Counted from the stretch's first letter, positions 14,985 through 25,318 are shown. The stretch: 64,000 nt of DNA from an uncultured Actinomycetes bacterium (GCA_963709345.1 CAVPVX010000011.1:224001-288000); one strand, 5' to 3'. The notes: generated from the sequence alone by a model not told the origin. Translations and numbers: made by a program.

Positions 14985-16701
<1,717 letters not shown>

Positions 16702-16705
<4 letters not shown>

Positions 16706-17181
16706 AGCACACGCTCTCCATCCTCGTCGAGAACAAGCCCGGCGTGCTCACGCGGGTCGCCGGGCTCTTCGCCCGCCGCGGCTTCAACATCGAGAGCCTG
16801 GCCGTCGGCATGAGCGAGGATCCCCAGCTGAGCCGCATCACCATCGTCATCGACGGCGACGAGCACCCGGTGGACCAGGTCACGAAGCAGCTGCACAAGC
16901 TCATCAACGTGCTCAAGATCCGCGACCTCGACCCCGGCAACGCCGTGGCGGCCGAGCTGCTTCTGGTGCGCGTCGCCGGTGAGGGCGACAAGCGCGACGA
17001 GGTGCTGCAGATCGCCGAGATATTCAAGGCCAAGATCGTCGACGTCGACCGGCGGACGCTCGCGCTGCGAGTGGTCGGCACCAACGACAAGCTCGAGGCG
17101 CTGCTCGAACTGCTGCAGCCGCTCGGCGTGCTCGAGGTGGTGCGCACGGGGACGATCGCGATGGGGCGGGGGCGCGGCTGA
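16702..17181 (+). CDS. ilvN: Acetolactate synthase small subunit
   Basis: LVENKPGVLTRVAGLFARRGFNIESL ACT domain. Confidence 0.96.
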
Positions 17182-17241
17182 GGCTGCGCCCGGCCGCTTC
17201 GTACGATCGCGCCGGTGTGCGCGTACCGGCGAGAGCGCGGC

Positions 17242-17925
17242 ATGAGCCCTGAGCTCGCCGCCGCGCTGTCGCTGGGCGCGCAGGCCTTCATCGTGGGGCT
17301 CTCGGGTGCCATGTCCCCGGGCCCGTACCTCACGGTGACGATCGCGCGCACCATGCAGAAGGGTCCCTTCTCAGCGGCGCTGATGCTCGTCGGGCACGCC
17401 GTCTTGGAGGCCGTGCTGCTGATCGGCTTCGCCTTTGGCCTGCAGCACGTTCTCCAGCTCTCGACCGTGATGCTGGTGCTCGCGCTTGCGGGCGGCGCGG
17501 TCGTGTTGTGGATGGGCTACGGCCTGCTGGCCGGAGCCGTACGAGGCACTATCGCCGCCGATCTGGAGAGCGCCGAGGGCGTCGCCGGCATGTCCGGTCA
17601 TCCCCTCGGCGCCGTCGCCCACGGCGCGATCGTCTCGCTCTCGAATCCCTTCTGGACGATCTGGTGGGCGACGATCGGCGTCAAACTCGCGGCCGACGGC
17701 CTTGCGATCGGGCCGATCGGTGTGGCCGCGTTCTTCATCGGGCACGAGCTTGCAGACATCTCGTGGTACGGGTTCGTGATCGCGGTCGTGCATCGCGGCA
17801 AGGGGCTGCTCACACCGCGCGTGTACTGCATCATCATGGGCGTGCTCGGTGCGGCCCTGCTCTACATCGGTCTGCGCTTCGTCGGCGAGGGACTCGGGAT
17901 CCACCTGCCCTGGCTGCCGCTGTAG
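17242..17925 (+). CDS. LysE-family translocator
   Basis: GLSGAMSPGP, GHAVLE and SNPFWTIWW motifs; hydrophobic. Confidence 0.85.
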   Translation: MSPELAAALSLGAQAFIVGLSGAMSPGPYLTVTIARTMQKGPFSAALMLVGHAVLEAVLLIGFAFGLQHVLQLSTVMLVLALAGGAVVLWMGYGLLAGAVRGTIAADLESAEGVAGMSGHPLGAVAHGAIVSLSNPFWTIWWATIGVKLAADGLAIGPIGVAAFFIGHELADISWYGFVIAVVHRGKGLLTPRVYCIIMGVLGAALLYIGLRFVGEGLGIHLPWLPL

Positions 17926-18049
17926 GCGACCCGGCCGGATCCGAGGTGGTCGCGCCACCGCCATGTGGCCGCTGCACGCGGCACTCTTGTGCCCGTCGTG
18001 TCGGCTCGTGGTACGGTGAGCCCGTCATGCGTTCGCGCGAGACTACAGA

Positions 18050-19294
18050 GTGAAGAGACTCCTGGGGCGGAGAAGCCGGTCGGAGCCACCCGAGGCGCTC
18101 AGTCACGACGCCGCAAGCCGCGCCGTGGGGCGCGTTGCTCTGTGGGGCGTGGTCGTCAGCCTTGCTCTTCTCGCCCTCACCGTGGTCATCGCGCTGGCAT
18201 CTCGCAGCCTTGCTCTCACCGCCGCGGCCGTGGACTGTGCCGTCGATGTCGTCGCTGCGCTCGTCCTCTGGTTGGGTCTCAAGCTCGCCGACCGCAAGTC
18301 GTCCAGGTTCCCGTTCGGCCTCTACAAGATCGAGAACCTGCTGCAAGTGACGATCGCCATCCTCATCTTCATCGCGGCATATGAGATCGGGGTGCAGGCG
18401 TTCAGCCCACGACAGGATGAAGCCAGCATCGACTTGTGGATCATCGCCGGCGTGGTGGTCGCCATCGTGGCCACCTGGGCCTACGGGTGGTACGCGGCCT
18501 CCTGGGGCAAGCGGGTCTCGTCGCCGGCACTGATCGCCGACGGCAAGCACCGCCAGACAGACGTCCTCTCGACCTCGCTCGTGCTCGCTGCCGTGATCTC
18601 GACCTACGCGGGTCTCGACATCGACCGGGTCGCGGCCGTCGTCATCCTCGTGTTCGCCGTCTACTCGGGCTGGGGTCTGCTCGTGGGCGGCATGAAGGTG
18701 CTTCTGGATGCATCGGTGGATGCCGCGACGACGGCGCAGATCCAGCGCCTGCTCGCAGCCGAGGCGCTGGTGGCTCAGGTCGACGATCTGGCGGTGCGCA
18801 GCGCCGGCCGCTATCTCTTTCTCGAGGCCACGCTGCGGCTGCGCACCGAGGACCTGGCCAAGGCTCATGCGACAAGTGAGCGTCTGGAGGCGGAGGTCCG
18901 CGCGGCGATCCCGGCAATCGAGCGGGTGAACTTCCACCTCGAGCCGCGGCGCCGCGAGATCCTTCATGTGGCCGTCCCGCTGGCTTCGGCGGACGGGGAC
19001 ATGAGCGGCGAGTTCGGCGAGGCACCGTACTTCGGCTTCGCCGAGGTGCGGGCGGCCGATGGCCGGGTGCTGCGGCAGGAGGTCATCGTGAACCCCAAGG
19101 CCGGGGCCGAGAAGCAGAAGGGCATCCTGGTCGCCGAGTGGCTCGTGGAACACCGCATCGATGTGCTCGTCACACGGCACGCGGTGAACAAGGGCCCGAG
19201 CTACGTGCTGCGAGAGGCCGGGGTGGAGACACGGATCGCGCAGCATCCCCGGTGGAGCGACGAGCTGGACAGGCTCCGGTCCGACGCCGGTTAG
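18050..19294 (+). CDS. Cation diffusion facilitator (CDF) fused to a C-terminal NifB/NifX-like domain
   Basis: FPFGLYKIEN, LIADGKHRQTD and FHLEP motifs, then VAVPL...EFGEAPYF. Confidence 0.85.
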   Translation: MKRLLGRRSRSEPPEALSHDAASRAVGRVALWGVVVSLALLALTVVIALASRSLALTAAAVDCAVDVVAALVLWLGLKLADRKSSRFPFGLYKIENLLQVTIAILIFIAAYEIGVQAFSPRQDEASIDLWIIAGVVVAIVATWAYGWYAASWGKRVSSPALIADGKHRQTDVLSTSLVLAAVISTYAGLDIDRVAAVVILVFAVYSGWGLLVGGMKVLLDASVDAATTAQIQRLLAAEALVAQVDDLAVRSAGRYLFLEATLRLRTEDLAKAHATSERLEAEVRAAIPAIERVNFHLEPRRREILHVAVPLASADGDMSGEFGEAPYFGFAEVRAADGRVLRQEVIVNPKAGAEKQKGILVAEWLVEHRIDVLVTRHAVNKGPSYVLREAGVETRIAQHPRWSDELDRLRSDAG

Positions 19295-19305
19295 ACCTCG
19301 TCGCG

Positions 19306-19325
19306 TTGTGGGCATAAGCCCATAA
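19306..19325. promoter_or_regulatory. Palindromic operator-like site (copy 1)
   Basis: TTGTGGGCATAAGCCCATAA, an imperfect palindrome about 20 bp upstream of the TehA-like gene. Confidence 0.55.
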
Positions 19326-19347
19326 CCTTTCGACCTACTGGAGCACC

Positions 19348-20370
19348 ATGGACTCTCGCCTGCGGCATCTTCCCGTCTCGATGTTCTCGCTTATCCTCGG
19401 CCTTGCCGGCTACACCGTCGCCACGCAGCGCGTGTTCGGCTATCTCGGCTGGAACCCCACGATCGCGAACGTTCTCCTGGTCGCGATCACCGTGTTCTAC
19501 GTCGTGCTGCTGGTAGCGTACGGTCTCAAGGTGGCGATCTACCGGGACGCCATGCTCGCCGAGTTCCGCCATCCGGTGATGATCAACTTCTTCCCCACGA
19601 TCACGATCTCTCTCCTCCTGCTCAGCATCGCCTACGCGGGGCTGAGCACGCCGCTCTCGTACTACCTCTGGATCGCCGGCGCGGCGCTCAACTTCATCCT
19701 CACCATCGTCGTGCTCTCGACCTGGATGCGACACACGCGCTTCGAGATCACGCACTTCAGCCCGGCGTGGTTCATCCCCGTCGTCGGAAACCTGATCGTG
19801 CCCATTGTGGGGGTGCAGCACGCCCCGGCCGACATCTCCTGGCTGTTCTTCGCGACGGGTCTGGTGTTCGCGGTCGTCTTGATGGTGATCTTCGTGTACC
19901 GCATGGTGTTCCATCAGCCGCTCCACGACCGGCATCTGCCGACGCTGTTCATCATCATCGCGCCACCGGCCATTGGGATGATCGCCTACGTCAAGCTCAC
20001 GGGAGCGTTCGACTCGTTCGCGCGGATCCTGTACTTTCTCGCCGTGTTCTTCGTGATCTTCCTCGTCGCGCACATCCGCCTGTTCAGCCGGCTGCGCTTC
20101 TACCTCTCGTGGTGGGCGTACACCTTCCCGCTGGCGGCATTCACCATCGCGACGTTCCTGGTCGGCGAAGAGACGGGGACGGGCTTCTACCTGGATGCGG
20201 CAACGGTCCTCTGGGGGGCAGTGACAGTGCTGATCGTAGGGCTGCTCATGCGCACGGGGGTCGCGATGCGACGGCGAGAGATCTGCGTCGCCGAACCGGG
20301 AGTGGTGAAGGACGATCCTGCGCCGGATGCCGACGCACTTGCGCCGGAGGACAGCGCGGCCCGGGCGTGA
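19348..20370 (+). CDS. SLAC1/TehA (TDT family) anion channel
   Basis: EFRHPVMINFFP, PAWFIPVVGN and SWWAYTFP motifs; about 10 TM segments. Confidence 0.88.
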   Translation: MDSRLRHLPVSMFSLILGLAGYTVATQRVFGYLGWNPTIANVLLVAITVFYVVLLVAYGLKVAIYRDAMLAEFRHPVMINFFPTITISLLLLSIAYAGLSTPLSYYLWIAGAALNFILTIVVLSTWMRHTRFEITHFSPAWFIPVVGNLIVPIVGVQHAPADISWLFFATGLVFAVVLMVIFVYRMVFHQPLHDRHLPTLFIIIAPPAIGMIAYVKLTGAFDSFARILYFLAVFFVIFLVAHIRLFSRLRFYLSWWAYTFPLAAFTIATFLVGEETGTGFYLDAATVLWGAVTVLIVGLLMRTGVAMRRREICVAEPGVVKDDPAPDADALAPEDSAARA

Positions 20371-20394
20371 CGAGCCCGGCTCCCCGGGTAGTCC

Positions 20395-21291
20395 TCAGCC
20401 TGCCGTCGGCGAGCGGAGCAGGGCATGGGCCTGCAGGGGCAGGCCCGAATGGTGAGCCACGAGCGGGCACTTCACCTTGAACAGGAAGAAGATGTCGGCG
20501 CCGGCGTCACTCAGGGTCTCGTAGTTGCCCTGGCCCTTGGCGATGATCAGATCGGCCCGGTTGAAGACGTCACGAAAGCCCGGCGAGCAGTCGTCGAGGA
20601 GTGTGCCCGGCGCGTCGGAGCCGTTGTCGATCACCGGGGCCAACTCGTTGAGGCCGGCGGTGGCGGCATCGTCCAGCGTGGCATCGTTGAGCACCGGCCG
20701 GCCGCGGACCGCGATGGTCAGCCGCTCCGTGGGGAGTTGCTCGACCAGCAGGCGGTCGACTACGATCTCGCCGCTGTTGTCGGTGAGAAGCAGCAGTCGC
20801 CGGGCGTGTGCGACGGCGGCGCGGAAGTCGTCCACATCGCCGCGGAGAGGTTCCGTGAGGCCGGATTCGAGAGCCTGCACGACCCCGTTGCCGTCTTGTG
20901 ACGATCCCTCTTGCAGAGCGCCGGCCACGGCCGCTGCGTTCATCCCCGCATCCAGAACGTTGGCCGCAATCGCCAGGTGCGCCGCGCTGGCGAGGGGGTC
21001 GGCGGAGTCCTGCACCAGAGTCCGCAGACGCGGCAGCGCCGCGAGCGCCGCGCTGTTGGAGCGGCGCTTGATCTCGGCGTAGGGATCGTCGTTCTCCGTC
21101 AGACGGCGCACCAGACGATGGATGAGCTGGCCGATGTGCGGCGGAGACTGACCGGTCTTGATCTCCGCCGCCAGCATGGCCAGCGCTTCCTGCATGATCC
21201 GATGCTGCGTGGCGTCGTCGTCCGCGGCGGACCGTGCCGCCTCAAGAGCCTGACGCACGAGGCACGGTGTGCAGTCGAGCGTGGTGAGCAT
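20395..21291 (-). CDS. ARMT1-like / DUF89 damage-control phosphatase
   Basis: DCTPCLVRQ, DPY, ANVLD, DNSGE, LNDAT, KGQGNYE and KVKC motifs. Confidence 0.88.
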   Translation of the reverse strand: MLTTLDCTPCLVRQALEAARSAADDDATQHRIMQEALAMLAAEIKTGQSPPHIGQLIHRLVRRLTENDDPYAEIKRRSNSAALAALPRLRTLVQDSADPLASAAHLAIAANVLDAGMNAAAVAGALQEGSSQDGNGVVQALESGLTEPLRGDVDDFRAAVAHARRLLLLTDNSGEIVVDRLLVEQLPTERLTIAVRGRPVLNDATLDDAATAGLNELAPVIDNGSDAPGTLLDDCSPGFRDVFNRADLIIAKGQGNYETLSDAGADIFFLFKVKCPLVAHHSGLPLQAHALLRSPTAG

Positions 21292-21396
21292 GGGAGCCTC
21301 GAAGGCCTTTCGATCGCTGATGACGCGAGAGCGCTCGTGCCGATCGGACGCAGGTTCGAGGCGTGCGATCCTGCTGCCGACTCGGGCCCCACATGA

Positions 21397-21416
21397 TAGT
21401 GGGCATATGCCTGTGC
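21397..21416. promoter_or_regulatory. Palindromic operator-like site (copy 2) next to a minus-strand -10
   Basis: TAGTGGGCATATGCCTGTGC shares the GTGGGCATAWGCC core with copy 1; TATCAT on the minus strand at 21393-21398. Confidence 0.5.
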
Positions 21417-21512
21417 GACCACCCGCCGAGGCGGCCGGCCGTGGCGATGCGCCCTACGCAGTCTGTAGAATCCAGAGTTGGGCGTAGCGGTACCGTTCGA
21501 TTGGGGGATTCC

Positions 21513-22043
21513 GTGCGAATCGATGAGGCCGTTGCTAGCGATCTCGGCAGCGTGTTGGCCGTCGAACGCGCGGCGTTTGGTGGAGACGAGGAGGCGGGAC
21601 TCGTATACGACCTGCTCAACGATCCCAGCGCGAAACCACTGCTGTCGCTTCTTGCACGTGAAGGCGATCGCGCAGTCGGACACATCCTGTTCACTGCGGC
21701 TCGGCTGGATGGAGCAGATCGACACGTCTCAGTTGCGATACTCGCCCCGCTCGCAGTTGCCCCGGAATACCAACGGATCGGCATTGGCGGGAGCTTGATC
21801 GAGGAAGGTATCGCGCATCTGGCGTCGTCGGGTGTCGAGCTCGTCTTCGTGCTGGGGCATCCTCACTACTACCCTCGTCACGGTTTCGTTCCCGCGGGAC
21901 GCCTGGGGCTTTCTGCGCCGTATCCGATCGAGCCGGAGGATGCCTGGATGGTGCGGGCACTTCGTCAGGGAGTCATCGGAGACGTGCGCGGAATGGTCAT
22001 GTGCGCGCACGCGATGGATAAGCCGGAGTACTGGCGCGAGTAG
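21513..22043 (+). CDS. GNAT N-acetyltransferase (YhbS-like)
   Basis: VGHILFT, LAPLAVAPEYQRIGIG and VLGHPHYYPRHGF motifs. Confidence 0.9.
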   Translation: MRIDEAVASDLGSVLAVERAAFGGDEEAGLVYDLLNDPSAKPLLSLLAREGDRAVGHILFTAARLDGADRHVSVAILAPLAVAPEYQRIGIGGSLIEEGIAHLASSGVELVFVLGHPHYYPRHGFVPAGRLGLSAPYPIEPEDAWMVRALRQGVIGDVRGMVMCAHAMDKPEYWRE

Positions 22044-22073
22044 TGCACGCGCGGCACTCGGCTAGTTCGGGCC

Positions 22074-22161
22074 GCCCGACAAGCGCACCCAGCAGACGGC
22101 CAGAAGGTAGGATCGGGAAGAGAGGCGCACCGGCCGCAGCTGATGCGCAACAAGGCTAGAC
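22074..22161 (+). other. Degenerate integron attC-like site 1
   Basis: GCCCGAC-AA-GCGCAC(C)CAGCAG(A)CGGCC...GGCCGCAGCTGATGCGC...GCTAGAC: an imperfect palindrome with two extrahelical bases and decayed R''/R' boxes. Confidence 0.6.
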
Positions 22162-22177
22162 GGACAAGGACCGCTCG

Positions 22178-22738
22178 CTGTCACCTGACTACCTCATCAA
22201 CCCCGCTGCCCGTGAGCATCTCGAGGCGCTTCCGGCCATCGAGTTGCGCGCCGCGACCCGTTTCTCCGGGTATGACGTCCCGCCCAGCGTGTTCGCGGAG
22301 GCGACCCCGGCCGCGGTCTTTGCGACCGCGCAGGCCGAGGGCCACCTCTGGGTCGCACTCGCCTCGGTTGGCGAGTGCGTAGGCTTTGCGCTTGTCGCGC
22401 CCTCGGGTAGACGCCTCCATCTCGCGGAGCTCGACGTCCTGCCCGAACATGGTGGCCGCGGCATAGGCAGCGCGCTTGTGGGCGAGGTTGAGCGCTGGGC
22501 TAGTGAGGCTCGCTTCGCCGAGCTCACCCTGACGACCTACCGCGACGTGGCCTGGAACGCGCCCTTCTACGTGCGGCTGGGCTTTGCGATCGTCGAGTCG
22601 GCCGCACTCGACGCCGAGCTCACGGCGCGGTTGGCGGCTGAGGCCGAGCGGGGGCTGGACTCGATGCCACGCGTTGCCCTGCGCAAACCGGTGGGTCGTC
22701 CAAGAAGCGCATCGAGCAGACAGGCCCCGCAGGCATGA
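22178..22738 (+). CDS. GNAT N-acetyltransferase
   Basis: LHLAELDVLPEHGGRGIG and LTTYRDVAWNAPFY motifs. The frame is open back to a CTG at 22178 behind an AAGGA RBS, so the start codon is atypical or mutated. Confidence 0.85.
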   Translation: MSPDYLINPAAREHLEALPAIELRAATRFSGYDVPPSVFAEATPAAVFATAQAEGHLWVALASVGECVGFALVAPSGRRLHLAELDVLPEHGGRGIGSALVGEVERWASEARFAELTLTTYRDVAWNAPFYVRLGFAIVESAALDAELTARLAAEAERGLDSMPRVALRKPVGRPRSASSRQAPQA

Positions 22739-22789
22739 TGGCTTCGAAGCGACGGCGATGGTCTGCTTCTCATGTGCGACCCGTTCGAT
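22698..22789 (+). other. Degenerate integron attC-like site 2
   Basis: GTCCAAG-AA-GCGCAT(C)GAGCAG(A)CAGGCC...GGTCTGCTTCTCATGTGC-GACCC-GTTCGAT; the two bulges are at the same positions as in site 1. Confidence 0.62.
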
Positions 22790-22926
22790 GCACGGACGGA
22801 TGCGGACCGAAGCCCCGGTCCAGCCGGGTTGAACCCGCGCAGGGACGGCCTCGGGTCCGGGACCACGCGGTGCGACATCGTGTAACGGACTCGAAGACCT
22901 GGACACGACGGGGAGGAGAAACGGGC

Positions 22927-23325
22927 ATGAAGAAGAGCGAATCGGAGGACAGCAGGTCTCCCTCCCAGCTGATAGACGCGAGAATCGAGGAACTGGGCGA
23001 TTGGCGGGGCAAGATGCTCAGCCGGCTTCGCACCCTGGTCGCGGAAGCCGATCCCGAGGTCGTCGAGGAGTGGAAGTGGCGAGGGGTCCCGGTGTGGTCG
23101 CACGACGGAATGGTCTGTACGGGCGAGACCTACAAGAACGTGGTGAAGATGACCTTCGCCAAGGGGGCGGCTCTGAAGGATCCGTCGGGCCTGTTCAACT
23201 CCAGTCTCGACGGGAACACGAGGCGTGCCATCGACTTTCATGAGGGCGAGGAGATAGACGAGGAGGCGCTCAAGACTCTCGTTCGCGCCGCCGTGACCCT
23301 GAACAGGTCCACAACTCGAAGCTGA
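22927..23325 (+). CDS. DUF1801 domain protein
   Basis: [28 protein letters not shown] and [15 protein letters not shown] motifs. Confidence 0.88.
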
Positions 23326-23393
23326 CCCACGGAATGGGGATAGGGTGCGTGGCCCGCCATTCCGAGTAGGCAAGGATCGACGGTCGGAGGACC

Positions 23394-23746
23394 GTGACTT
23401 CCTGGGATCCGAGCCGTTACCTGCGTTTCGCGGACCAGCGCACTCGGCCGTCGGTCGATCTGACGGCACGCGTCGCGCCGGTCGCTCCGCGAAGGTGATC
23501 GACCTCGGCTGTGGCCCGGGCAACAGCACCATGGTGCTGCGAGATCGCTGGCCTGAAGCCGGCGTGATCGGCCTGGACAGCTCATCGATCGTCTGTTTGC
23601 GGCCGTTCCTCGAGGTCCTCGACCGGTCGGAGGCTGCGCGGTTCAAGAACCAACTCGTCGGTCGGGTCGAGGGGGCGTATCGGCGCCGCGTCGACGGGCG
23701 CGTGCTCTTCCCGTTCCGCCGGACCTTCGTCATCACCTGCAAGTAG
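23394..23746 (+). pseudogene. tam: Trans-aconitate 2-methyltransferase remnant (frameshift and large internal deletion)
   Basis: [20 protein letters not shown], then a frameshift, then [11 protein letters not shown]...GLDSS joined directly to the C-terminal LRPFL...LFPFRRTF. Confidence 0.8.
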
Positions 23747-23830
23747 GCGAGGGCTGCTTGCCTGGAGAAGCGAGGCAGCCTGCCTTCGTGCGATGGCGCC
23801 GGGCTCGCAAACCGCATACCCTACGGCTCG

Positions 23831-25318
23831 ATGAACGGCGACCCGCTGCATGATCTCGTTCTTCTCATCCGCTCTCGCTACGGGGCTTTGCTGATCGACA
23901 CGGCAGAAGAGGACCGCGCGGAGGCACTGGTGCAGCGCGCGGCAGAGCAGCTGCAGCTCGCGCTGTTCGTGTGGCGGCGCGCCTCGGGGCTCAAGCGGGT
24001 GGGCACGCTGACAGGCATCTACGGCACCCAGGACCCGCGCATGGCCCTCAGTCATGTCGTGAGCTCCGAGCTGCCGGCCCTGTACGTGTTCCACGGCCTC
24101 GGCCCCGACCTCGAGCGGCCTGAGGTGGCCGACCTTCTGCGCGAGGCGGCGCAGCGGCTGGTCGGCTTCTCGGGCGCCGTCGTGCTCTCCGGCGCCGGCG
24201 TCCACCTGCCCGAATCGCTGCGCACCGTGGTCGGCCCGGTGCGCGTGCCGGCCCCCACGCGCGAGGACTACCGGCGACTCCTGCGCCGCGTCGTCCACGA
24301 TGTCTCCACGCGGATGAAGGTCGACGATTCGCTGGCCCGGCAGGACGAAGACCGTCTGCTGGCCAATCTGCAGGGTCTGGCGCTCGCCGAGGCCGAGAAG
24401 CTGCTGACCCGGGCGATCGTCGAGGACGGTCGACTGTCCGCGGACGACCTCGCCCGCGTCGCCGCGGCCAAACGGGATCTGGTGGAGCGGGACGGCCTGC
24501 TGGAGTACTGCCCGGCTGCCGGATCCCTGGACGAGATCGCGGACCTCGTGCGGCTCAAGGAGTGGCTCGGAAAGCGACGGATGTTCATGGACGACCCGCA
24601 GCGGGCCACGCAGTTCGGCCTCGAGTTCCCGCGCGGCGTGCTGCTCGTGGGCGTGCCCGGATGCGGCAAGAGTCTCTGCGCCAAGGCGGTGGCCGCGGCG
24701 TGGGCGCTGCCGCTGGTGCGGCTCGACCCGGGCGCGCTGTACGACAAGTACGTGGGTGCGACCGAGCAGAACTTTCGCGAAGCGATGGGCTCCGCCGACC
24801 GGCTGGCGCCGCTGGTACTCTGGATCGACGAGATCGAGAAGGCGTTCGCAGCCGGCGGGGAGGAGGACAGCGGCACCTCCCAGCGCGTGCTCGGGACGTT
24901 CCTCTCGTGGCTGCAGGAGCGCAGAGGCGACGTGTTCGTGGTCGCGACGGCCAACGACGTTCAGCGGCTGCCGCCTGAGCTACTGCGCAAGGGCCGCTTC
25001 GACGAGACGTTCTTTGTGGATCTGCCCGACGAGGCGGCGAGGGCGATCATCTTCGCGATCCACCTGCGCAAGCGTAAGCAGGCGGTCGAGGGCTTTGACC
25101 TGCCCGTGCTGGCGCGCGAGAGCGAGGGCTACAGCGGCGCGGAGCTGGAGCAGGTCGTCGTCTCCGGTCTGTACACCGCGTTCGCGACGGACGCGCCGCT
25201 GACGGACCGTCTGCTGCTCGATGAGCTGCGACAGATGCCGCCGATCGTCTCGACCGCCCGCGAGAAGATCGCGGCGCTGCGCGCGTGGGCCGAAGGCCGG
25301 ACTGTCTCGGCCAACTGA
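23831..25318 (+). CDS. AAA+ ATPase, Ycf46-like
   Basis: GVPGCGKS Walker A, LWIDEIEK Walker B and PPELLRKGRFDE. Confidence 0.88.
   Translation: MNGDPLHDLVLLIRSRYGALLIDTAEEDRAEALVQRAAEQLQLALFVWRRASGLKRVGTLTGIYGTQDPRMALSHVVSSELPALYVFHGLGPDLERPEVADLLREAAQRLVGFSGAVVLSGAGVHLPESLRTVVGPVRVPAPTREDYRRLLRRVVHDVSTRMKVDDSLARQDEDRLLANLQGLALAEAEKLLTRAIVEDGRLSADDLARVAAAKRDLVERDGLLEYCPAAGSLDEIADLVRLKEWLGKRRMFMDDPQRATQFGLEFPRGVLLVGVPGCGKSLCAKAVAAAWALPLVRLDPGALYDKYVGATEQNFREAMGSADRLAPLVLWIDEIEKAFAAGGEEDSGTSQRVLGTFLSWLQERRGDVFVVATANDVQRLPPELLRKGRFDETFFVDLPDEAARAIIFAIHLRKRKQAVEGFDLPVLARESEGYSGAELEQVVVSGLYTAFATDAPLTDRLLLDELRQMPPIVSTAREKIAALRAWAEGRTVSAN

Follow-up and report, generated by a model that had tools for sequence, protein, structure and literature searches.

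Two genes for GNAT acetyltransferases, each with an imperfect palindrome at its 3' end, very probably form a small and partly decayed cluster of attC sites lacking integron integrases (CALIN), located in the chromosome of a probable member of the Thermoleophilia that carries a complete integron on another contig. The locus lies in a stretch of 64,000 nucleotides, referred to as the window (C11:224001-288000; GCA_963709345.1, CAVPVX010000011.1), from the assembly of an uncultured Actinomycetes bacterium comprising 3.11 Mb in 11 contigs. Elements of this kind are known, here in the form of a two-cassette CALIN in which the R boxes are damaged; what makes the case of interest is the unexpected host lineage, together with the living integron system of that lineage. 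In the usage of IntegronFinder (Cury et al. 2016), a CALIN is said to consist of at least two attC sites close together without an integron integrase nearby. The window shows this arrangement, with two co-oriented sites 624 nt apart on contig C11, a short open reading frame (ORF) before each of them, and the sole integron integrase (IntI) above the cut-off on contig C7. It differs from the usual CALIN in its occurrence in Actinomycetota, in the complete integron of the same genome and in the mutated triplets of its R boxes.

The two attC sites are on the plus strand at 22074-22161 (site 1) and 22698-22789 (site 2). Site 1 starts with the R'' box GCCCGAC, has C16 at 22089 and A23 at 22096, and ends with the R' box GCTAGAC at 22155-22161. 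Site 2 has the R'' box GTCCAAG, C16 at 22713, A23 at 22720 and the R' box GTTCGAT at 22783-22789. A left arm of 29 nt common to both palindromes (22069-22097 and 22693-22721) is 79% identical. To score these sites, a covariance model, R1, was built from 11 attC sites on other contigs of the same genome with the window sites excluded, giving 87 positions and 20 pairs. The seeds were 13 sites from contigs C2, C5 and C7, of which two that were misaligned by MAFFT (L009:18885 and L012:10476) were dropped; crude AAC...GTT hairpin scans, which returned real arrays together with many false matches, were used for seed picking only. RNAalifold predicted the R-box and L-box helices from the 11-site alignment, with compensatory changes at 10/17 predicted pairs. 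When the whole window was searched with filters off, the best match was site 1 at 22074-22161 (39.2 bits, E 7.1e-8, 16/20 model pairs standard) and the second was site 2 at 22698-22789 (29.7 bits, E 1.9e-5, 17/20 model pairs standard); the third was far lower (14.4 bits, E 0.16). The boundaries agree to the base with those of the two palindromes reported in the first-pass annotation, which had been made from the sequence alone. Across the genome R1 gave 19 matches at E<=1. Eleven are the sites on which it was trained, two are those of the window, and the other six, with the exception of C6:78440, lie within clusters holding training sites on C2, C5 and distal C7. The site L009:18885-18988, recognised by eye in the IntI-linked array and untrained, scored 31.5 bits, and the window scores are therefore within the range of untrained true sites.

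The internal geometry of both sites is that of attC. C16 and A23 of the top strand are unpaired in each, and the 6-bp stem between them contains one mismatch per site. On attC bottom strands, an extrahelical G16 in L'', a conserved T at position 23 or 24 and a 6-bp stem between them have been described (Nivina 2016, PMC5027507). Of 141 distinct attC sites in the lineage, 137 have C at position 16; at position 23, 99 have A, 35 have G and 6 have T. The earlier proposal that an unpaired C and an unpaired A, 6 nt apart, are the extrahelical bases is borne out by both comparisons. The L box is kept in both window sites, the spacing falls within the ~0.5-1 kb usual for attC sites, and the ORF placement is likewise as for attC, the stop codon of the first GNAT gene (22043) lying 31 nt before site 1 and that of the second within site 2. 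In the inner part of the stem of site 2, paired changes distinguish the window from its counterpart in genome G005 (GAGCAG/CTGCT(T)C versus AACCTG/CAGGTT). Searches of 46 IntI loci with R1 yielded 137 matches at E<=0.01; with the loci oriented so that intI is on the plus strand, the matches are downstream of it on the plus strand, and one minus-strand match was noticed (L057). The attC sites of the lineage are 53-104 nt long and follow the form RYYYAAC-AAGCR..ATC.AGC.G ... C.GCT.AT..GC-(5-6 nt)-GTTRRRY, the architecture also seen in the window. On these comparisons of sequence, both sites are assigned to the attC family of the lineage; since their triplets are mutated, they are classed as degenerate and not as canonical attC sites. 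The R'' box of site 1 (GCCCGAC) and the R' box of site 2 (GTTCGAT) occur together in one attC site at L048:9935-10023, in a metagenome-assembled genome (MAG) titled Coriobacteriia.

The cargo of both cassettes was compared with homologues in relatives. GNAT1 (21513..22043, plus strand) encodes 176 aa from a GTG start and matches Pfam Acetyltransf_9/_1/_7; no NCBIfam model scored above its cut-off. GNAT2 (22160..22738, plus strand) matches Pfam Acetyltransf_1/_7/_10, and its single frame encodes a product with 55-68% identity to homologues. In G005 a GNAT2 homologue lies between R1 matches of 52.2 and 62.7 bits on an IntI-holding contig, within a run of 30 same-strand matches, and homologues stand between attC sites in the IntI-linked arrays L111 and L031. 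A GNAT1 homologue (66% identity) is located between two attC matches 1.2 kb downstream of IntI in L081, titled Coriobacteriaceae. G004 and G009 have GNAT1 and GNAT2 in the reversed order relative to the window. Because the homologues lie between attC sites in IntI-linked arrays, the window locus is read as a CALIN with two cassettes. In genomes of the same genus, window 20400-24000 is represented by scattered pieces that are never contiguous; the flanks are rearranged there, and the search of these relatives revealed no empty site.

Cassette 1 would span ~21479-22155 and cassette 2 22156-22783, each consisting of one GNAT gene and its attC. When a cassette is functional, the attC bottom strand folds into an imperfect hairpin with R box, unpaired spacer, L box, flipped-out G16 and T23, and a variable loop. 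IntI binds this hairpin and cuts the triplet of R' (G↓TT on the top strand), and cassettes are thereby excised as circles and reinserted. The two ends of cassette 2 had been called nearly complementary in the first-pass annotation; this is a weaker point, as only 4/7 positions agree (5/8 in the 8-mers considered there).

An integrase that could serve such sites is encoded on contig C7. The intI gene (L009:16004-17068) encodes 354 aa and matches TIGR02249 with 463.9 bits against a cut-off of 265; it is the only gene of the genome above the cut-off, which was passed in 0/14 control genomes. On the window contig C11 the only TIGR02249 match has 21.5 bits and lies ~115 kb before the window. The C7 protein has the domains PF00589 (phage integrase) and PF13495 (SAM-like N-terminal), and its residues 25-338 align with residues 3-318 of VchIntIA (2A3V) at E 6.8e-93. 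The alignment with 2A3V is ungapped across the IntI-specific insertion stretch ALARKYPKAPWEWRWQWVFP, and the integrase appears to be intact. Directly downstream of intI, and co-oriented with it, follow short genes each with a palindrome, so that C7:428003-432000 (L009:16004-19501 and L010:1-3000) holds a complete integron of intI and at least four cassettes with attC on the same strand. Most attC sites of the genome are nevertheless found away from the integrase, in four stretches at C2:215713-219943 (minus strand), C5:11720-13150 (plus strand), C7:764924-772520 and C6:78440-78537. Covariance-model support for both sites, related attC sites in the genome and its relatives, and an IntI with the diagnostic insertion in the same genome were thus all found; the lack of all three had been named beforehand as the outcome that would speak against an integron origin. 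The description of the locus as a fossil CALIN from a lineage-specific integron system fits as far as the cluster is a relic. The system itself is not extinct, with an apparently intact integrase and an array on C7.

Known examples of sedentary chromosomal integrons with an "inverted" integrase come from spirochaetes, cyanobacteria and others. The integrons of this genome and its relatives resemble them in that attC sites are located downstream of intI, on the same strand and in long arrays; they differ in their hosts, which here are MAGs titled Thermoleophilia, Coriobacteriia and Actinomycetes. The "inverted" type is a recognised one (PMC13323075). Cyanobacterial IntI proteins are ~60% identical to the C7 IntI and are likewise accompanied by same-strand R1 matches. 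With the VchIntIA/VCR system of Vibrio cholerae, the integrase shares the IntI insertion and the sites share the attC layout of R box, spacer, L box with G16, 6-bp stem and T23, whereas the attC sites of this lineage are 53-104 nt long and have a conserved left arm of their own, RYYYAAC-AAGCG.ATC.AGC.G.

The state of the two window sites was assessed from their R boxes and their pairing. Cleavage takes place in the AAC triplet of the R' bottom strand, corresponding to G↓TT on the top strand (Nivina 2016, PMC5027507). Site 1 has the triplets GAC in R'' and GCT in R', which do not compensate each other, and site 2 has AAG and GTT; the conserved combination of AAC ending R'' with GTT starting R' is present in neither, in line with the drift of the R boxes remarked on earlier. 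In G005 the site corresponding to site 1 is GCCTAAC...GTTGGAC, and GGAC comes next as in the window. A contig of 279 nt assembled from sequencing run X1, a different metagenome, differs from the window at a single position, C22156T, by which GCTAGAC becomes GTTAGAC (one contig, depth 5.8). As this near-identical natural variant has GTT, the GCT of site 1 is taken to be a recent change and not a trait of the family. On the bottom strand each window site has 13/18 core pairs standard, and 13 or fewer were found in only 2/61 other sites; a crude measure of fold probability places them 56th and 61st among 63. The broken state of the neighbouring Tam-like gene and the divergence of a contig from run X3 upstream of cassette 1 are likewise counted in favour of decay. 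Given the R-box changes and the loss of ~5/18 core pairs, the sites are probably partly decayed, as first proposed, and the cassettes probably immobilised or only rarely recombining. That the sites are poorly active or inactive is judged to have a probability of a little over one half.

The strongest competing explanation is a live CALIN, in which both sites would be competent for recombination, the R-box variants would be tolerated and the C7 integrase would act in trans. We consider this possible but doubtful. In its favour, the L box, C16 and A23 are intact, site 2 keeps GTT, both ORFs are intact and the genome encodes an apparently intact IntI. The variant triplets also occur in arrays: R'' ends in AAC in 123 of the 141 lineage sites, in GAC in 8, in AGC in 6 and in AAG in 1, and R' starts with GTT in 131 and with GCT in 5, and one of the GAC sites (L010:2938-2997) belongs to the genome's own IntI-linked array. 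Of the five GCT sites, three are paired with an R'' ending in AGC, and G↓CT is therefore perhaps tolerated by the integrase of this lineage, which may cut there. The three sites with this compensated variant of AAC/GTT are L069:8343-8429, L012:11065-11151 and L110:13567-13653, two of them in integrase-linked arrays. Against a live CALIN, the two triplet changes of site 1 are uncompensated, each site is among the three poorest of 63 in core pairs, and the GTT variant from run X1 marks GCT as recent. In addition, a partner cut at G↓TT would be without micro-homology to G↓CT. No recombination joints were seen in the contigs from the sequencing runs, which came from small shares of the runs (0.16, 0.12 and 0.06) and are unable to show absence.

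Several observations weigh against a reading of the locus as a decayed CALIN. The two GNAT genes have intact frames and can be aligned with homologues from end to end, site 2 retains GTT, and both sites retain the L box and the extrahelical bases. Several sites of IntI-linked arrays score similarly low or lower with R1, such as the untrained L009 site (31.5 bits) and L081:2866-2963 (18.4 bits). R1 scores are biased toward the family on which the model was trained, and low scores are therefore in part a matter of distance from that family. G↓CT may be tolerated in the lineage, since 3/5 GCT sites are paired with AGC, and the fold probabilities of bona fide sites themselves cover a range of 11 orders of magnitude. 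The observations from X1 and from a second run, X3, come from one short contig each, with depths of 5.8 and 2. The support for attC comes from the lineage-built R1 in place of the general attC model of IntegronFinder, and the host is placed by the record titles of IntI relatives and not by marker genes.

The left end of the cluster bears on how the decayed CALIN arose. Alignment with the GNAT1 homologue of L081 places the upstream R' box of that cassette (GTTAGGC) on GTTGGGC at 21478-21484 of the window, and the similarity continues through the 5' untranslated region to the GTG start. GTTGGGC, with G↓TT at 21478/21479, is therefore a better left junction of cassette 1 than the GTTCGAT heptamer at 21495..21501 (plus strand) that was noted before GNAT1 in the first-pass annotation. 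That heptamer is present, and is identical to the R' box of site 2, but it is no rarer than expected by chance (4 in the window versus 6.5 expected by shuffling), is not conserved in the homologous L081 cassette and probably lies within the 5' untranslated region of cassette 1. A contig of 151 nt from run X3 matches the window from 21454 on and has 66 unlike letters before this point (single contig, depth 2), so that the divergence sets in 24 nt before the GTTGGGC core. This gives a weak hint that 21454..21484 (plus strand), which ends in the core, is the right arm of an upstream attC truncated by an event independent of the integrase. R1 detected no complete attC before GTTGGGC in the window. 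Hidden Markov models of half sites found no attC stump left of GNAT1, with poor power, as true half sites reached 5.8-16.3 bits. We infer that the cluster would be what is left of a larger array, truncated at the left end within an attC.

Alternatively, the cluster may have originated on the spot, with free cassettes inserted by the integrase into a chromosomal GTT and not as a fragment of an older array. Insertion of cassettes at genomic attG sites of this type has been described (Loot 2024, as cited in PMC12614218). At the left junction the GTTRRRY core is perfect (GTTGGGC) and no attC could be detected in front of it, and elsewhere in the genome there are four more attC clusters at a distance from IntI. 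The X3 contig, however, shares with the window 24 nt upstream of G↓TT, which an attG insertion would not bring, and the shared stretch is as long as the right arm of an attC. The neighbourhood is also rearranged and holds a broken gene, and no empty site was found among the relatives searched. An origin by attG insertion is accordingly rated as unlikely, and derivation from a larger array is preferred.

That the palindromes are not attC at all, and instead represent transcription terminators, a dispersed palindromic repeat or a chance likeness, can be dismissed as highly improbable, given that R1 recovers them with E 7e-8 and 2e-5 at exact boundaries and that homologous genes are flanked by high-scoring attC beside integrases. 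The R boxes are off the consensus, and a scan of 20500-24000 against Rfam at E<=10 gave four weak unrelated matches, none at the sites. The window sites were not separated from shuffles by folding energy either (z -0.2 to -2.2; in a second run -1.36 and +0.16). Bona fide attC sites of the same genome, however, gave z of only -0.76 to -3.5, and as true attC sites fold no better than shuffles, the folding test is without power here. There is no T run 3' of either stem. The 17-mer AAGCGCAYCNAGCAGAC has two exact copies in the window and two in the whole genome, all at the two sites, and is therefore not a dispersed repeat; with up to 2 mismatches it occurs 3 times in the window versus 0.11 expected, and looser matches in the genome scan were scattered coding sequence.

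The lineage and distribution of the integrase were also examined. Of 282 stretches encoding a relative, 80 were kept, and among these the nearest relatives of the C7 IntI, with 85-87% identity, are in MAG records titled Thermoleophilia, followed by Coriobacteriia and Actinomycetes MAGs with 62-80% and then by cyanobacteria with ~60%. The host is thus a probable actinobacterium of the Thermoleophilia, and the assignment to actinobacteria made from the sequence alone is upheld. An IntI above the TIGR02249 cut-off was found in 29/54 genomes of the genus and in 39/301 genomes sampled across the class. By family, IntI at E<=1e-60 was present in 29/55, 11/55 and 1/24 genomes of the class sample, and none was found in the other nine families. 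Long same-strand arrays within 20 kb hold 21 matches in G001 and 30 in G005.

Among Gram-negative bacteria, the gene-capture systems mainly responsible for multi-resistance are integrons, whose patchy distribution among bacteria is unexplained. For Actinobacteria, the IntegronFinder 2.0 survey of complete genomes mentions "a few CALIN" and a single In0 but not any complete integron (PMC9024848), and a permafrost study from 2026 speaks of a "virtual absence" of integrons in Actinomycetota (PMC13323075). The phyla named in the relevant part of Ghaly 2022 are others and include no actinobacteria (PMC9668308). Full-text literature searches for integrons together with Thermoleophilia, Coriobacteriia, attC in Actinomycetota or sedentary chromosomal integrons returned only resistome surveys and unrelated mentions; supplementary tables may list such integrases. 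The chances appear evenly balanced that the window relic is a by-product of a large family of active chromosomal integrons in Actinomycetota, undescribed as far as these searches show, with hosts titled Thermoleophilia, Coriobacteriia and Actinomycetes. Such a family would be characterised by co-oriented intI and cassettes, arrays of 20-30, cassettes shared across classes, clusters distributed round the chromosome and an integrase that perhaps accepts G↓CT. If this is true, the statement that Actinobacteria lack complete integrons would be overturned. With its integrases and the long attC arrays beside them, this high-GC Gram-positive lineage lends itself to the study of strand choice, tolerance of triplets and cassette spread beyond the platform, and the window locus would represent a natural example of cassette fixation via point changes in R boxes and truncation of attC.

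The cluster is bordered on the left by an ARMT1-like gene (20395-21291, minus strand) and on the right by a gene for an AAA ATPase (23831-25318). Between them are GNAT1, the first palindrome, GNAT2, the second palindrome, a DUF1801 gene and a broken methyltransferase gene, all on the plus strand. The other genes of the window, such as those for RsgA, IlvC, SerA and a pyridoxal phosphate enzyme, are ordinary chromosomal ones. Comparison of window 16321-21315 with L116 (G004:C58) located the ARMT1-like gene elsewhere in G004, between blocks matching window 16321-17925 and 18104-19312, and the left flank of the cassette cluster has therefore itself been rearranged.

The DUF1801 gene (22927..23325, plus strand; Pfam DUF1801) is possibly a third cassette gene. 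It is 85-86% identical to the gene directly after the last of the 21 attC matches in the IntI-linked array of G001, and a second copy in G001, with the same similarity of 85-86%, stands behind another attC. The similarity to the G001 copies is limited to the coding part, and the R1 scan of the window found no attC after the gene. The broken gene at 23345..23830 (plus strand), which is outside the cassettes, encodes a Tam-like S-adenosylmethionine (SAM) methyltransferase whose Pfam match covers the first SAM motif only. It is a pseudogene with the N-terminal part in a different frame, and its halves are 15 nt apart in the window versus 426-429 nt in G004 and G006, so that ~410 nt have been lost internally. 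In G004 an intact Tam-like gene stands directly after four attC matches.

The start of GNAT2 was considered separately. The frame is open from 22160, and the first ATG, GTG or TTG is the TTG at 22244; a start there would cost ~24 conserved residues. At 22179-22181 the window has CTG, where the homologues in G003, G004, G009 and G010 have ATG or TTG. This CTG was considered as a sign of decay and rejected, because the array copy of G005 also has CTG at that position.

Upstream of the C7 intI, a tRNA-Ser(cga) is located at a distance of ~220 nt (region L009:14762-15797). Another 760-840 nt upstream there are a partial tRNA copy (74% identity) and a 105-nt repeat (84%), an arrangement that resembles island integration at a tRNA. 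A tRNA-Ser beside intI was found in 0/15 loci of relatives, and adjacency to a tRNA was rejected as a conserved landmark of intI. Downstream, the presumed attI core GTTAGCC is positioned 57 nt past the intI stop, and the first cargo of the integron is a dienelactone hydrolase. The attC at C7:764924, in one of the clusters away from the integrase, has the R' box GGTAGGC in place of one starting with GTT.

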